From assembly GCA_902500055.1 (NCBI GenBank), contig GCA_902500055.1_4131.1: DNA of 64,000 bases, one strand, 5' to 3'. This DNA comes from Escherichia coli. Lineage in GTDB: Bacteria > Pseudomonadota > Gammaproteobacteria > Enterobacterales > Enterobacteriaceae. Made by a program: the position numbers and the translations under genes. The first letter of the stretch is position 1, and every line of letters begins with the position of its first letter. The notes under the pieces were generated by a model, which saw only the letters and a program-made list of their open reading frames with translations, ran no database searches and was not told the origin of the DNA. Positions 35,017 to 56,505 of this stretch are shown piece by piece.

Positions 35017-35207
35017 TAACATTTTATTAGTAATACCCCTTTATCGAAGTCGCTAAGGTTACCCGCAGTTAAGCCCCCTACGCATTTTGCCATAGTCCAA
35101 TCCCTTTTTATTCATAAAAGTCAAGGGATTACCTATGCATTTTTTTAACGCTGAAATTTAAAAATGCCTTGACTTTTTTATGATTCAGTACTAAATCCTT
35201 TTACGCA

Positions 35208-42150: not shown

Positions 42151-42221
42151 CTAAGTACAATGCAAGTACTTTTTAAAAATAGTTTTCAGTACTTGATAGT
42201 ACTAGCCACCAGCAAACAATA

Positions 42222-44491: not shown

Positions 44492-44596
44492 TGGTAAACG
44501 TCCTGTAACGCATTCTAACGAGATAAACGGTTGAGTACTGGCATTGTATAGGGTAATGAATTAAAGCCCACCAGCGTTAACCAGTGGGCTATAATC

Positions 44597-48549: not shown

Positions 48550-48650
48550 AAACGCACTCAATCGCATTCTAACGACTTTAACGCCACCAGCTAGGGCAAT
48601 GCATCAGATAAACAGTTTAATACGTTAGAATCGTTTCTAGGCGGTGCTGG
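48550..48650 (-). other. interleaved inverted repeats (A-B-A'-B')
   Basis: CGCATTCTAACG ... GCCACCAGC ... CGTTAGAATCG ... GCTGGTGGC. Confidence 0.4.
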
Positions 48651-48672
48651 TGGCCTGGTAAACGATAAACAC

Positions 48673-51181: not shown

Positions 51182-51421
51182 TTACATTCCAACCATTGCA
51201 GCACGGATCGCCGTAGTGCTATACTTGAATCCGTCCGGCGTTGTAGTAGTACCGTTGGCTTTTAATCTGCGGTACATACATTCCGCAGCAATATCTTTCG
51301 TTTTACTTTGTGCGATGCAATTTTGAGCAATCCGGTATAATGATTCATCGTTATTGATCCAAAGGCTTACATTCCAATGAGTTTTGTTTTTGTGCCCGTT
51401 GTAAGTTTTAGTACTAGCCAT
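51182..51421 (-). CDS. hypothetical protein, paralog of 53221..53460
   Basis: Trimmed to Met11 (MASTKTYNGHKNKTHWNVSLWINNDE...); shared C-terminal PDGFKYSTTAIRAAMVGM. Confidence 0.55.
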   Translation of the reverse strand: MASTKTYNGHKNKTHWNVSLWINNDESLYRIAQNCIAQSKTKDIAAECMYRRLKANGTTTTPDGFKYSTTAIRAAMVGM

Positions 51422-52120: not shown

Positions 52121-52140
52121 TTTGTAACCCTCATTCAGTA

Positions 52141-52282
52141 GTTGATGTAAGTATTATACGCTTTTACTTTCTATTGTCAAACTATTTTATCAGGGGAGTT
52201 TTTCGTGTGCCTTACTCCTGGGCTACTTAACGGGAAGTTACTTATTTCGTTCCCCGTCCTGATGTAAAACATTATACGCCTT
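52141..52282 (-). repeat. duplicated ~140-bp leader cassette, copy 2
   Basis: Near-identical to 42009..42150. Confidence 0.55.
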
Positions 52283-52344
52283 TAAACATAGTTTACAAGT
52301 ACTTTTTAAAAATAGTTTTCAGTACTGAATATTAAAAAAAAGTA

Positions 52345-52373
52345 TTGACAGCATTATCAAGTACTGGCATAAT
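52345..52373 (+). promoter_or_regulatory. plus-strand sigma70-like promoter
   Basis: TTGACA-17 nt-CATAAT, followed by CCCACCGGGTGC box. Confidence 0.4.
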
Positions 52374-52547
52374 ATACCCCATGACAACAGCTAACCCACC
52401 GGGTGCACAATTGTAACTATACTAAACTAATTTTTCTATAGATACACTCCCGCACCCTATGGGCTACGGCTTATCTGCCAATGAATACATTATGCCAGTA
52501 CTGACAAAATAAGTCAATACCGGCAATTGTAAAGATTTGTAAACTGC

Positions 52548-53220: not shown

Positions 53221-53460
53221 TTACATTCCAACCATAGCCGCACGGATCGCAGTAGTGCTATATTTGAATCCGTCCGGTGTTTTATCTTGTCCAGTCTGTT
53301 CTAAAAATAACATCATATGACGGGCCGCATCATTGCGATTAGTATTGGCGGCAATAAAGTCCAGGGCCAACCGATACAATCCCTCATCGTTATTAATCCA
53401 CAGGCTTACATTCCAATGAGTTTTGTTTTTGTGACCTAAGAACATTTTTGATTTAGCCAT
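53221..53460 (-). CDS. hypothetical protein, paralog of 51182..51421
   Basis: Trimmed to Met14 (MAKSKMFLGHKNKTHWNVSLWINNDE...). Confidence 0.55.
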   Translation of the reverse strand: MAKSKMFLGHKNKTHWNVSLWINNDEGLYRLALDFIAANTNRNDAARHMMLFLEQTGQDKTPDGFKYSTTAIRAAMVGM

Positions 53461-53552
53461 TTTTTTAATCCTCTTATATAGTGGGGAACTATTCCCCACC
53501 TGATGTAAAACATTATACGCTTTTATTCAGTACTGTCAAACTAATTTTTAAC

Positions 53553-53915
53553 TTATTCGTAAATTTTGCCACTGTCAGCCCATACCAGGAAACGAGGCAT
53601 ATTATCCCATGCATCTTGTTTTAAATTTAAACCGTGTAATACTTCTGTACTTTCCATTCCTGGTACTGGTTTACTATACACCGCGAAATTTTCGCCCATA
53701 TACTGATAAACCATCGTCAAATCACTGGCGATCATCTTATGGATCATCGCATCAAGCATCACGGTGGCGGCGTATTGTTCACGCTTAAGCGGCAGCATTT
53801 TAATCAGTTCGCGGTATGCGTCAATGTGAGTTTTAACCGTTGCCGCCGGAAGATCTTTCATATCGTCGCGGAAGTTAACCAGGTTAGCAATGATTTTAGT
53901 GATTTGAGTCGCCAT
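53553..53915 (-). CDS. hypothetical protein
   Basis: 120 aa; first gene of the early-like cluster. Confidence 0.55.
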   Translation of the reverse strand: MATQITKIIANLVNFRDDMKDLPAATVKTHIDAYRELIKMLPLKREQYAATVMLDAMIHKMIASDLTMVYQYMGENFAVYSKPVPGMESTEVLHGLNLKQDAWDNMPRFLVWADSGKIYE

Positions 53916-54028
53916 CGTTTTAATCTCTTAAAAGTGAGTAGGGAAGTGTTCCCGCTCTCGATGTAAAACATTATACGCTTTTTTCAGTACTGTGCAAGTA
54001 CTTTCTACAAATACTTTTAAAATAGTTT

Positions 54029-54125
54029 TCTTTCTATATAGGGGAACTATTATTCAGTACTGAATCAATCCAGGGGAACTATCTTTCTATATAGGAGTAC
54101 TATTATTCAGTACTGAATCAATCCA
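54029..54125 (+). repeat. two ~43-bp direct repeats
   Basis: TCTTTCTATATAGGGGAACTATTATTCAGTACTGAATCAATCCA repeated with 2 mismatches. Confidence 0.6.
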
Positions 54126-54277
54126 CTAAATCATCCCTATACCCCGTAAAACGGCCTCAGACGCATTCTAACGCATTAATACACCTAAGCTATACATTTG
54201 CACCATTCTAATCATTCCAGGGCTTTACGGGCCGTTTAAACGCGTTAAATTATTTTCAATTATTTTGTTTTTAGGTA

Positions 54278-54305
54278 TTGACTTGATCCTGAAAAAGCGT
54301 ATAAT
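54278..54305 (+). promoter_or_regulatory. plus-strand sigma70-like promoter
   Basis: TTGACT-16 nt-TATAAT. Confidence 0.4.
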
Positions 54306-54493
54306 TACTACATAGACGCGAGAAAGCGGAAACCCCAGGGGGTGCGGAATTACGCCCAAAATTCAAGATATAAAAAAAGGATACACTCCCGCACCCTAGC
54401 AGGCAAACGCACTTTCTCAGTACTGAAATATAGTACCATAGTCCGGCCCAGGATAGCAAGCAAATTAATTAAAATTTTTTTGCTTCCAGGGTA

Positions 54494-54521
54494 TTGCTTT
54501 ATTTTTTCAGTACTGTATAAT
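54494..54521 (+). promoter_or_regulatory. plus-strand sigma70-like promoter
   Basis: TTGCTT-16 nt (CAGTACTG)-TATAAT; downstream sequence paralogous to that after 54305. Confidence 0.4.
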
Positions 54522-54743
54522 AGTTCCATCAAGTCGAGAAAGACTCAAGCCCACCGGGTGCATAGTTACGCCCAAAATTCAGTACTGAAAAAATTTTTAA
54601 AAATATCCGTCCAGGCCGTTGACATTGCCCCCAGTTTATAAGATAATGATTCCAGATTCAGAAAAATCTAACTCCAGATACTGCGGGGAAACTATCCCCA
54701 CGCGGTAGGGGAACTATTGGAAAAAACAAAATAAAATTTTGAT

Positions 54744-54870
54744 TTAGCCGTCTATACTTCCAGACGTGTAACCATCTAGCCGTTTAGCCGTCCAAACGTC
54801 TAGCCATCCAGCCATCCAGAAATCTAGCCGTTTAGCCGTCTAGATGGATAGCCATCTTTACTTCCAGACT
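54744..54870 (+). repeat. iteron-like short direct repeats
   Basis: At least 8 copies of TAGCC(G/A)T within ~110 bp, flanked by CTTCCAGAC x2. Confidence 0.5.
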
Positions 54871-55925
54871 TCTGGAGGGCTAGACATATCTACGTCCAAA
54901 ATCCACCCAGGGTAACTACACCCAAAATCCGTCAGTACTATACCATAGATCTATCTTTTGAAAGGGAGTATTCAGTACTGCCATCATAGCCCTCACTATG
55001 TTACCCTAGGAGGATGAAGACCATCATGTAGTACTGAATACTGTTAGAGGGAATCCACCAGCTTGTGCTGGTGGCATAATGCATTAAATTAAAATCAGTA
55101 CTGACACCATTCTGTTAATATCAGTACTGTTTATATTACGAAAAAAGAGGTTATAAAAAGATGTACCACCCATAGGAGGAACTATCCTTTCAGTACTGTC
55201 TCACGACAGGAGGTAGAGTGAATGAATTGTTTGCGGCAACTCATCTCTCTATGTAGAACATTATACAGTACTGAATCATAATGTCAATAGCTTTCTTTCA
55301 TTATTCAGTACTGATATTCTTGAGAACTACCCGACTACAAACATCATTATATCCCACAAATCATAAACGTCCCAACGTAAATTTCAACTTTCGAAGATCC
55401 AACTTTTATTTCATAGGTACTCCAAAATTTTTAGGATCGAGATTTAGGATGGAGTACTAACCAACTTTTTGCTGGAGCCTCAAGGGGTAATGGAATTTTA
55501 CCCCGAAGGGTAAAAGGGTAATTGTAATTAAGGTGAAAGTAATAATTCAGTACTAATCATTGTGTGATTACTTTTGATTACATTTGATGTAATTTGCAAA
55601 ATGGAAAAGGAGCTTGGAAACTACAAAGTACGGCAGACTTCCTCTGCCTACTTAGTGGGATATCAGTACTGAATCATTCACACACATTTCCGTGCATTCT
55701 TGAGCAATCTTGTCTATACTAATCAGTACTGAATCATATATAATCATTCTGTGATTCTACGGTGCTCATATAAATGTTTATATATGATTACTTATGACTA
55801 CCTATGATTACGGGGTTTAGCCTGGGGAGAATCCTAGTGATCGCATTTGTCCAGGCTGAATTTTAACAATTCGCCTGTACATAAAGGTTGTTCACTAGGA
55901 GCTTCCCCTGTCTCTATGTGTTTAA

Positions 55926-56117
55926 TTACTTTCTATATATAAGCATTAAGATATAGTAGTACTGATTATACTGTACATTCTCTTTAATATTATAAGGGTC
56001 TATAGCAATCTCGGTACATCTGTTAAATGCATATCTATTAAATGCCAGTGGAATTATAGATCTAATCCATACTTGTTCATTTTCTTTTAGTTTACTTATA
56101 TAGAAGTTTTTATACAT
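55926..56117 (-). CDS. famC paralog (KEYY...LIFRY small protein)
   Basis: 63 aa; MYKNFYISKL...ILMLIYRK. Confidence 0.5.
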   Translation of the reverse strand: MYKNFYISKLKENEQVWIRSIIPLAFNRYAFNRCTEIAIDPYNIKENVQYNQYYYILMLIYRK

Positions 56118-56132
56118 AGTATTCTCTATTAA

Positions 56133-56315
56133 TTAATATGATAGTACTAGTGTTAGTACTGAGCACAATTGTTCTTTATAGTTCTTATGGTATATAGAAT
56201 CTTTTATGCACTCATTGAAGTGCCATAGGTATAATCTTGGGTCGCATTCTTTATATATTCTTACGGGGACGAATGTTAGTTTTCGTATATAGAATTCTTT
56301 ATGTTCTTTATTCAT
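56133..56315 (-). CDS. famC paralog
   Basis: 60 aa; MNKEHKEFYIRKL... Confidence 0.5.
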   Translation of the reverse strand: MNKEHKEFYIRKLTFVPVRIYKECDPRLYLWHFNECIKDSIYHKNYKEQLCSVLTLVLSY

Positions 56316-56316
56316 A

Positions 56317-56505
56317 TTAGTACCTGAATATAAGTAGGATTATGTTATAGTACTGGTTAGTACTGCAATGATTCTCTATACATCGATTAACAGTTATGGA
56401 ATAGCTATATCTGGCGTAAGCATTATCCAGCGGGATTTTACATTGAGCACTTAGAGAAAGTACAGTAGGTAGTGTATTCAAATAGAAGTCTTTGTAATTA
56501 TTCAT
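56317..56505 (-). CDS. famC paralog
   Basis: 62 aa; MNNYKDFYLNTL...IILLIFRY. Confidence 0.55.
   Translation of the reverse strand: MNNYKDFYLNTLPTVLSLSAQCKIPLDNAYARYSYSITVNRCIENHCSTNQYYNIILLIFRY

Follow-up and report, generated by a model that had tools for sequence, protein, structure and literature searches.

An untranslated block that probably forms the end of the direct terminal repeat in a Rak2-like jumbo coliphage

The 64,000-nucleotide stretch of DNA analysed here (contig GCA_902500055.1_4131.1, hereafter the window) is part of the genome of a jumbo coliphage of the genus Asteriusvirus (PBECO4/121Q/G17 type). The genus belongs to the Rak2-like group, which consists of myoviruses of about 350 kb. 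We examined a block of about 2 kb in the window (53916-55925) that has no credible open reading frame (ORF), and conclude that it is probably the untranslated end segment of a direct terminal repeat (DTR) of about 20.6 kb, containing the point 55652/55653 at which terminase cuts (a slash marks a cut throughout). A preliminary description of the block, made from the sequence alone, had proposed an iteron-type replication origin or a regulatory hub; it missed the block's main identity, which is that the packaged chromosome ends inside it. The block is a regulatory and cis-acting hub whose primary identity is that of an untranslated DTR end with the physical end of the chromosome, and its features look like chromosome-end equipment, not like a demonstrated replication origin.

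Rak2-like jumbo phages have been isolated in large numbers for therapy. There is essentially no description of how their chromosomes of about 350 kb are cut and packaged, or of how they are injected and protected: the literature searched gives only terminal repeats of about 20 kb, and it contains no report of this noncoding region in Rak2-like phages. The block yields cis elements that can be tested, including a CT/TAG motif at the cut sites of several genera, candidate terminase repeats, and a palindrome of Chi sites at a fixed distance from the end.

Position of the chromosome end

A megablast search with positions 53500-56400 against a GenBank phage collection returned 44 records, nearly all of them E. 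coli or Salmonella jumbo Asteriusvirus (PBECO4, 121Q, phAPEC6, G17 and E9.1 among them), at 89-96% identity and with the whole query covered. Several of the relatives have linear records of 366-384 kb, in all of which the block is found 18-22 kb from one end. In G17, the left copy of the repeat (1-20668) equals the right copy (350150-370817) and maps to window positions 35056-55652. The records of fEgEco12, vB_Ec-M-J, E9.1, BF17 and WPEC5 have their end beside the noncoding block at window position 55652 as well; with G17, six independent linear records of close relatives terminate exactly there. The far ends of three of the six (G17, fEgEco12 and vB_Ec-M-J) fall at 35056. At 55652 the ends read ...GGCAGACTTCCTCTGCCTACT / TAGTGGG in five records, and the opposite ends at 35056 read ...GTCGCTA / AGGTTACCC in fEgEco12 and vB_Ec-M-J.

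'Direct Terminal Repeats' are annotated at 1-21525 in the vB_Ec-M-J record, and the termini of fENko-Kae01, a Rak2-like phage outside Asteriusvirus, were determined by PhageTerm. Published work gives PhageTerm termini confirmed by restriction digests for fEgEco12 (PMC13070987), a DTR of 20,668 bp by PhageTerm for Sharanji (PMC11895373), and a 22.5-kb repeat for CBB, inferred from doubled read depth and pulsed-field gels (PMC5259590). Because the ends of the relatives map to 35056 and 55652, the block comprises the final 1737 bp of the DTR and 273 bp of unique DNA outside it. The position of the terminus at 55652 is close to certain. In virion DNA, one copy of the block is the extreme tip of the chromosome and the other lies at the internal junction between repeat and unique DNA. 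Recognition of the DTR end also offers a simple way to orient and trim genomes of this group, many records of which are permuted or collapsed assemblies.

The DTR stands out in composition from its surroundings. It is GC-richer (38.8%) than its flanks (32-33%), and the GC step at about 35 kb coincides with its left boundary. Sigma-70 promoters that match the consensus at 11 or more of 12 positions number 23 within it; the 35 kb on its left side have 11 and the 8 kb on its right side have none.

That the block is free of genes, as the preliminary description had it, holds on closer examination. Only short overlapping ORFs are present. The longest, a 99-aa ORF with a GTG start at 54342-54641, was rejected as coding: it spans two promoter units, carries a frameshift in phAPEC6, and is partly out of frame in 121Q. 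The curated annotations of G17, phAPEC6, fEgEco12, vB_Ec-M-J and BF17 leave the block empty (in the hand-curated G17 and phAPEC6, about 1.9 kb is unannotated at its position), and ARAGORN found no tRNA or tmRNA.

The sequence at the cut recurs in relatives of other genera. Read outward from the DTR, the two boundaries of the window are CCTACT/TAGTGG and AACCT/TAGCGA, which have CT/TAG in common in inverted orientation. The boundary annotated beside the early genes is CT/TAGC in fENko-Kae01, CBB and Muenster. Over four Rak2-like lineages (Asteriusvirus, fENko-Kae01, CBB and Muenster), /TAG(Y) is found at seven boundaries, preceded by CT at six of the seven and by TA at one. For fixed positions this agreement is far beyond chance, and the motif shared at seven boundaries therefore supports sequence-specific cleavage.

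Repeats of the TGATTAC type, which the preliminary description had noted near 55560-55800, flank the cut in two sets phased at 10 bp. Exact copies start at 55565, 55575, 55785 and 55805, with a TGACTAC variant at 55795, and vB_Ec-M-J carries one additional 10-bp unit. These repeats are reasonable candidates for recognition sites of the small terminase subunit. In the mechanism we propose, terminase would recognise the phased repeats and nick the inverted CT/TAG sites on opposite strands, and strand-displacement synthesis would then duplicate the 20.6 kb to give two copies per packaged genome. Staggered nicks followed by strand displacement are the classical T7-type model for the generation of terminal repeats, and we infer that two inverted nick sites 20.6 kb apart fit such a duplication.

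Two further elements accompany the end. The terminal hairpin of the window has a counterpart of different sequence, TATCTTCT-ctgtata-AGAAGATA, at the end of fENko-Kae01, and the 43-bp palindrome at 55416-55458 is invariant in nine Asteriusvirus sequences and recognisable both in fENko-Kae01, 86-130 nt from the end, and in GAP32. Table 1 lists these and the other elements; every feature named in the preliminary description is present where it had been placed, each far above chance.

Table 1. Coordinates of the elements in and around the block, with the cut-site sequences of related phages for comparison
Feature	Position	Strand	Description
DTR, 20.6 kb	35056-55652		about 50 small minus-strand early genes, then untranslated 53916-55652
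Second DTR boundary	35055/35056	mirrored	reverse complement ...GTAACCT/TAGCGAC
Promoter of first DTR gene (53553-53915)	53970-53997	-	-35 TTGCAC, -10 TATAAT, then hairpin GGGAAcacTTCCC in the 5' untranslated region (5'UTR)
Two 44-nt direct repeats	54029-54072, 54082-54125	+	95% identical, 53-bp period, each with TTCAGTACTGAATCA
Orphan cassette 1	54278-54420	+	P1, TTGACT-N16-TATAAT, 11/12 consensus
Four copies of ACRYCCAAAATYC	54356-54930	+	CCAAAATYC core starts at 54356, 54572, 54896 and 54922
Orphan cassette 2	54494-54590	+	P2, TTGCTT-N16-TATAAT; perfect -10, weak -35
P3 and leader	54619-54743	+	TTGACA-N17-GATAAT, 11/12; leader with GGGGAA...TCCCC hairpins, directed into the octamer array
Octamer array	54744-54875	+	contiguous 8-bp unit TYYAGCCR, about 12-16 units; plus strand C-rich, GC 48.5%, skew -0.25
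Chi/Chi palindrome	55055-55074		GCTGGTGG on minus strand 55055-55062 and plus strand 55067-55074; 578-597 bp inside end
Inverted pair of CAGTACTG-containing arms	55096-55129	-	14 pairs, then ATTTTAATTT; terminator-like, downstream of P4
P4	55260-55287	-	TTGACA-N16-TATAAT, 12/12 sigma-70; 365-392 bp from end, inward
Imperfect palindrome GGTACTCCAAAATTTTTAGGATCGAGATTTAGGATGGAGTACT	55416-55458		43 bp, conserved
Three TGATTAC-type repeats	55565-55598	+	10-bp phased, 55-88 bp inside cut
Terminal hairpin	55632-55648		GGCAGA-CTTCC-TCTGCC; stops 4 nt before chromosome end
Chromosome end, DTR boundary	55652/55653		...CTGCCTACT / TAGTGGG; motif CT/TAG
Untranslated overrun beyond DTR	55653-55925		two TCAGTACTGAATCAT sites (CAGTACTG at 55664 and 55724)
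Second set of three TGATTAC-type repeats	55783-55811		10-bp phased, 131-159 bp outside cut
fENko-Kae01 boundaries			AGATA/TAGCGG and TGCCT/TAGCCA
CBB boundary			ACGCT/TAGCGA
Muenster boundary			AGGCT/TAGCAC

From the early genes towards the end, the elements follow one another in a fixed order: P1-P3 facing outward, the array, the Chi/Chi palindrome, P4, the 43-bp palindrome, the TGATTAC repeats flanking the cut, and the terminal hairpin. The sequence of cassette 1, P3 leader, array and CCAAAAT box is kept in GAP32 and Yen9-04. Compared with G17 and EC22.5-2, the block is 100% alignable at 93-96% identity, and the segments 54278-55054 and 55291-55652 form a core that is 98-100% identical; the genes of the DTR are 87-92% alignable. 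These observations bear on the suggestion that the block is merely what remains of lost early genes, a set of decayed cassettes and functionless debris. Two or three cassettes of a dispersed family do stand here without ORFs, and repeat copy numbers drift between relatives: the 44-nt repeat (first described as two 43-bp repeats at 54029-54125) is single in G17 and WPEC5 and comes with 13 additional nucleotides in vB_Ec-M-J and BF17, and the array differs by 8 or 16 bp among close relatives. However, the block is at least as conserved as the adjoining genes and always present, whereas DTR genes come and go; the order of its elements persists between genera with little nucleotide identity otherwise; and the Chi sites, the CCAAAATYC boxes and the cut-site motif are position-specific. 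We consider decay highly improbable. In EJP2, a more distant Asteriusvirus, the cassettes are 96% identical and the 360 bp nearest the terminus are only 43% alignable; the chromosome end of EJP2 may differ from that of other Asteriusvirus.

Chi sites in the terminal repeat

The perfect hairpin that the preliminary description had placed near 55060, CCACCAGC-TTGT-GCTGGTGG, consists of two back-to-back copies of the E. coli Chi octamer, one on each strand. Chi is strongly over-represented in the window (11 copies against 0.41 expected, with none of 100 shuffles as high), and 10 of the 11 copies lie within the DTR, none being found in the 35 kb to its left. In the close relative EC22.5-2, of which 350 of 352 kb were covered, there are 28 Chi sites where about 1.5 would be expected; the 21-kb DTR accounts for 11 and the other 329 kb for 17, a density ten times higher in the DTR. 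Eight minus-strand Chi sites are oriented for a RecBCD enzyme entering at the 35056 end, the first of them 1.4 kb in, and the plus-strand site at 55067-55074 is oriented for entry at the 55652 end, 0.58 kb in. In seven Asteriusvirus relatives the Chi palindrome is found about equally far from the end, and fENko-Kae01 has a Chi pair 484-503 nt from its end.

After injection, RecBCD loaded at either free end would meet a correctly oriented Chi within 0.6-1.4 kb. The ends would then be spared and channelled into recombination that joins the repeats, yielding circles or concatemers.

Other Chi sites of the DTR also occupy particular positions. A second convergent pair, 62 bp apart, is intergenic at 48584-48653, the site at 42206 directly follows the box of a promoter cassette, and that at 44568 lies inside a terminator-like hairpin.

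Promoters, leader hairpins and repeats

Three promoters in the block match the sigma-70 consensus at 11 or more of 12 positions, where 0.09 would be expected in shuffled sequence, and none has an ORF behind it. The preliminary description had pointed out the plus-strand promoters at 54278 and 54494 (P1 and P2) with their paralogous downstream sequences, which we also find; P3 at 54619 (+) and P4 at 55287 (-) are absent from its list. The ORF-less transcript of P4 crosses the Chi palindrome and has a fold z of -5.4, and in fENko-Kae01 an inward TTGACA-N17-CATAAT promoter lies about 330-360 bp from the left end, upstream of the Chi pair of that phage. The first early promoter with its 5'UTR hairpin (53920-54018) is about 78% identical in nucleotide sequence to intergenic cassettes of many rV5/phi92-like (Vequintavirinae) coliphages. 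The promoters of the block should be among the first DNA transcribed. Being of host type, they would fire once the DNA is in the cell, and, with the array, they may govern how the DNA enters, acting either as a leading end driven by transcription, like that of T7, or as a T5-like stop region.

P1 and P2 head two members of a cassette family whose unit consists of a near-consensus sigma-70 promoter, then a short hairpin (HP1), then the box CCCAYNGGGTGC. The window holds ten copies, all in the DTR and most of them upstream of genes, and many more occur in fENko-Kae01, GAP32, Yen9-04, CBB and Muenster, often as convergent pairs. In cassette 1, HP1 is CGC-GAGAAA-GCG (54317-54328), and a second motif, HP2 (CCCCAGGGGGTGCGG, 54333-54347), pairs with CCGCACCCTAGCAGG (54389-54403) into a long hairpin; the transcript has a fold z of -2.8, and the cassette is conserved at the nucleotide level in fENko-Kae01, Muenster, GAP32 and Yen9-04. 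In cassette 2, HP1 is AGTC-GAGAAA-GACT (54532-54545), HP2 is CCCACCGGGTGC (54550-54561) followed by ACGCCCAAAATTC, and a site within the terminal repeat of CBB matches 43 nt of the core at 91% identity. For P3, the order of promoter, GCGGAAGGGGAACTAATGG and array is kept in GAP32 and Yen9-04.

HP1 was compared in 13 copies from five phages, picked by hand and eye (in a set of 22 copies, HP1 is missing from 4-5 and its loop has 7 nt in three). Each of the four stem pairs covaries in these copies, and the hexaloop is kept as GAGAAA, AGATAA or GCGAAA. The stem is 94% paired and shows 26 double-change cells against 8.8 in shuffles, none of 500 shuffles being as high, and the signal is destroyed by sliding the partner columns. 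One G-U pair is consistent with an RNA made from the transcribed strand. The alignment gives good evidence that HP1 acts as a functional leader element. In being short, placed just 3' of early promoters, purine-rich in its loop and covarying in its stem, HP1 matches what is expected of a nut/boxB-type hairpin; antitermination of this type is a lead by analogy, not a finding.

The same data could be read as a cluster of small RNA genes, in which short structured RNAs from P1-P4 act in trans on targets of the host or the phage, or in cis as nut/put antitermination sites. The covarying stem, the conserved purine-rich hexaloop, the G-U pair and the fold scores of the P4 and cassette 1 transcripts are all in keeping with this. 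However, a search of Rfam 15 gave no match at gathering scores in the whole window and only noise in the block at E-values up to 5; DNA palindromes, which fold the same way on both strands, account for much of the folding energy; the aligned copies were chosen by eye from a set in which some lack HP1; and a ten-copy cassette that mostly precedes genes is a leader element and not a gene specific to the block. We regard such a gene cluster as possible but doubtful. The regulatory hub with small RNAs suggested in the preliminary description is partly supported, by the ORF-less, near-consensus promoters and the covarying leader hairpin, but the units themselves are members of a dispersed family found mostly ahead of genes.

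A gene-free stretch of 430 bp elsewhere in the DTR (52121-52547) carries two convergent cassettes, at 52395 (+) and 52463 (-), whose CCCAYNGGGTGC boxes form an inverted repeat, and the same convergent arrangement occurs in fENko-Kae01, GAP32, Yen9-04 and CBB. Such pairs could give overlapping sense and antisense short RNAs or a bidirectional terminator.

The clustered palindrome of the preliminary description is CAGTACTG. Where 0.75 copies would be expected, the window has 65, and 14 of these fall in the block. In the 350 kb of EC22.5-2 there are 202 copies (3.4 expected), and the core AGTACT occurs 913 times (119 expected); both are densest in the DTR. The motif occurs in genes as well as in early promoters, where its position varies from overlap with the -35 to the spacer or a place next to the -10, and CAGTACTG/AGTACT motifs fill the terminal regions of fENko-Kae01, GAP32, Yen9-04 and Muenster. 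Its abundance suggests a candidate binding site for a phage or host factor. The four CCAAAATYC boxes listed in Table 1 are the sole such sites in the 64-kb window; the box also occurs 3' of the array in GAP32, and in CBB.

The octamer array was first described as at least eight TAGCC(G/A)T units at 54744-54870. We find seven exact TAGCCRT and one CAGCCAT between 54745 and 54855, and Tandem Repeats Finder reports a period of 8 with 12.4 copies at 54745-54843. Distant blastn matches show that GAP32, Yen9-04 and Erwinia jumbo phages have an array of this class in the corresponding regions. Phages of other groups carry it too: in the T7-like Ermolevavirus PGT2 it lies in both terminal repeats, 40-114 bp from the record ends, and in the T5-like Vibrio phages pVp-1 and Pontus it lies between DnaA boxes and GCAAATCC repeats, a location that is the counterpart of T5 Repeat Region 3. 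If this recurrence in the end regions of T5- and T7-like phages is not convergence, it would point to a common answer to a problem that phage chromosome ends have in common.

Searches around the array gave little beyond this. A scan of viral contigs (IMG/VR) returned 19 matches, about half of them chance two-unit matches, and among the matches listed from a scan of bacterial genomes most were microsatellite-like sites in metagenome-assembled genomes (MAGs) of Gemmatimonadales and Anaerolineae, with no enterobacterial chromosomal site and hence no lead to a host factor. Relatives of a flanking gene in IMG/VR were limited to 121Q itself. When 205 ORFs from array-bearing T7- and T5-like loci were compared with the phage by tblastn in search of a shared array-binding protein, the only match was a DUF7249 protein. 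This 79-aa early protein (53221-53460, minus strand) is encoded two genes from the block and is 75% identical to a PGT2 ORF; its EC22.5-2 copy is 83% identical to that ORF, and a paralogue at 51185-51421 (minus strand) 59%. The presence of both DUF7249 and the array in PGT2 suggests that Autographiviridae and jumbo myoviruses have recently exchanged DNA of their early regions. In MAG contigs of Gemmatimonadales, Anaerolineae and Cytophagales, near-perfect tandem octamer arrays of TCTAGCCA or TCCAGCCG reach up to 13 units.

As an iteron-type replication origin, the form in which the preliminary description had cast it, the block is unsupported. Its repeats are contiguous 8-bp units and not iterons of 17-22 bp at helical spacing; 53916-55925 contains no DnaA box (TTWTNCACA), the window-wide count of which is at chance; and the block, which had been called AT-rich, offers no AT-rich unwinding element, with a GC content of 38.2% that exceeds the 34.5% of the window and rises to 48.5% in the array. 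Among the neighbouring proteins there is no recognisable initiator domain, only DUF7249 and unannotated PHROGs, and the same class of array occurs in the noncoding end-region DNA of phages with unrelated replication systems. In form, composition and company, the array mismatches an iteron origin of the plasmid type.

Cumulative GC skew over a whole genome, the check proposed for an origin, was computed for EC22.5-2 and does not single out the locus. The raw curve falls nearly monotonically, most genes being on one strand, and the detrended curve has minima at kb 21 and kb 176 and maxima at kb 50 and kb 231. The global minimum at kb 21 corresponds to the block, but it is shallow (-0.26), the minimum at kb 176 (+0.42) is nearly equal, and the curve tracks gene orientation. 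The pattern is one of gene-orientation blocks rather than of a single origin; it is compatible with an origin at the block and not diagnostic of one. The skew also switches locally at 55.5-56 kb, where an array of Tyr-rich small ORFs begins; the reversed skew of that array produces the switch beside the block. The array runs from 55926 to about 60900 on the minus strand and comprises about 20 paralogous ORFs of about 60 aa (MxKEYY...LLIYRY, phrog_11711); its plus-strand GC skew is +0.18, opposite to that of all other minus-strand genes of the window.

Origins of T4 are promoter-based, and T7 has promoters at its replication origins. An origin at the block, unlikely as we judge it, keeps some standing because transcription-primed origins of the T4/T7 type need no iterons, DnaA boxes or AT-rich element. 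ORF-less promoter transcripts would then prime DNA synthesis while the repeat array binds an initiator; in one variant, the RNA from P4, G-rich across the array, could form a persistent RNA-DNA hybrid like those of T4 oriF/oriG. Consistent with this are the three near-consensus promoters without ORFs, the strand asymmetry of the array, whose C-rich plus strand makes inward transcripts G-rich, the coincidence of the EC22.5-2 skew minimum with the block, and the strong conservation of the block. Rak2-like phages also carry T4-type replication proteins (PMC5259590), which we count in favour.

Several points weigh against reading the block as the equipped end of the chromosome. The termini are taken from the records of relatives and not from reads of this phage. 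The boundary at 35056 has no repeat set comparable to the TGATTAC repeats, and recognition is therefore either asymmetric or independent of them; in a search for recognition repeats shared by both boundaries, the count of common 9-mers was not above that in shuffles, and the sole long word in common was the ubiquitous ATGATTCAGTACT, placed asymmetrically. Outward-facing promoters have no obvious job at a DNA end, and the roles suggested for the TGATTAC repeats, the array and P1-P4 come from position and analogy only. The octamer array is not restricted to phages, because it is present as a plain microsatellite in unrelated bacterial MAGs, and its recurrence among phage groups could be convergence. 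The strand bias of Chi coincides with the coding strand, and codon usage may contribute to it, although codon usage alone is no explanation because 6-7 of the 10 DTR Chi sites are intergenic. Finally, the paired DnaA boxes (IRD'-spacer-IRC') of the closest layout match, T5, are absent here.

Comparison with known systems

Like the iteron origins of plasmids and phages and T4 oriE, the block has short direct repeats in noncoding DNA next to promoters. It differs from them in its contiguous 8-bp unit and in the absence of an AT-rich element, a DnaA box and a recognisable initiator gene. The cassettes resemble the PeSL cassettes of T4-type phages, in which an early sigma-70 promoter with a stem-loop is likewise dispersed amid small variable early genes. 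There is no sequence relationship between the two, however, and in the cassettes described here the hairpin lies 3' of the promoter, in the leader, with a conserved hexaloop and a second box, CCCAYNGGGTGC, and copies often form convergent pairs.

In P1, LLS and MD8, Chi sites cluster at or near the chromosome ends in an end-directed orientation, a known strategy; the interpretation given is that RecBCD is recruited for protection and for growth that depends on recombination (PMC12315714). The phage studied here shares with them the over-representation of Chi, its clustering in or near the terminal region, and its bias to the RecBCD-active orientation, and by analogy its Chi sites may serve a similar RecBCD-related role. 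Unlike them, it is a virulent jumbo myovirus with terminal repeats of fixed sequence, and one of its Chi pairs, for which a role with RecBCD is predicted, forms a perfect palindrome whose distance from the end is conserved.

The left end of T7 has a terminal repeat of about 0.16 kb, short-repeat arrays, and the host promoters A1-A3, which all lie in the last 0.75 kb or so. The block likewise presents a noncoding leading segment with short-repeat arrays and a strong inward promoter for host RNA polymerase a few hundred bp from the end (P4), with the downstream genes all co-oriented, and the T7-like PGT2 carries the octamer array class in its terminal repeat. The differences are the length of the repeat, 20.6 kb against about 0.16 kb, and the three promoters that face outward.

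The best match in layout, and the closest analogue described, is Repeat Region 3 of T5, an untranslated region of 1.2 kb that lies mostly in the terminal repeat with a 270-bp overrun, is dense in repeats and palindromes, is more tightly conserved than the pre-early ORFs, and holds the injection stop signal, for which paired DnaA boxes have been proposed as central in a preprint by Davison (bioRxiv 10.1101/866236). Both regions are untranslated, longer than 1 kb, and placed at the same end of a long terminal repeat of early host-takeover genes; both overrun the boundary by about 270 bp (here 1737 bp inside and 273 bp outside); both are packed with direct and inverted repeats and palindromes and conserved above the adjacent ORFs; and the octamer array class occurs in the counterpart region of T5-like Vibrio phages. 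The block differs in having a Chi/Chi palindrome and strong ORF-less promoters, and because it has neither the DnaA-box pairs nor nucleotide similarity to T5 itself we call it a functional analogue and not a member. Palindromes resembling Fur boxes (GAGAATCATTATCATTCTC, 14-16 of 19 positions) exceed expectation several-fold in T5 Repeat Region 3, as they do in the noncoding terminal regions of Muenster and fENko-Kae01, and there are none in this window or in Yen9-04.

This likeness raises the question of a T5-like injection stop, in which the 35056 end would enter first, transfer would pause at the block while the roughly 50 early genes are expressed, and the rest would then follow. The long terminal repeat of small early genes with host-type promoters and the conserved, repeat-rich untranslated end with its overrun are as in T5, and the position of the array in T5-like Vibrio phages, with DnaA boxes on one side and GCAAATCC repeats on the other, is that at which the first-step transfer of T5 stops. 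Yet the block has no DnaA boxes and no sequence similarity to Repeat Region 3, no two-step transfer in Rak2-like phages is reported in the literature searched, and the genes of the DTR and of tens of kb beyond it are transcribed away from the noncoding end, which a T7-like entry fits at least as well. We think a stop of this kind improbable.

Taken together with the untranslated chromosome end that we favour, the comparisons allow one broader and quite speculative proposal, which we hold to be rather improbable: that the array, the Chi/Chi palindrome and the end promoters form a conserved 'DNA-entry checkpoint' in three unrelated lineages of DTR phages, the Rak2-like, T5-like and T7-like. By binding, for instance, a conserved factor of the envelope or the nucleoid, the array would halt or pace transfer at a set distance from the end that enters, and host RNA polymerase would then load while Chi tames RecBCD. 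Were this so, Rak2-like jumbo phages would inject in two steps, and the injection-stop signal of T5 would have a recognisable sequence module outside the T5 family.

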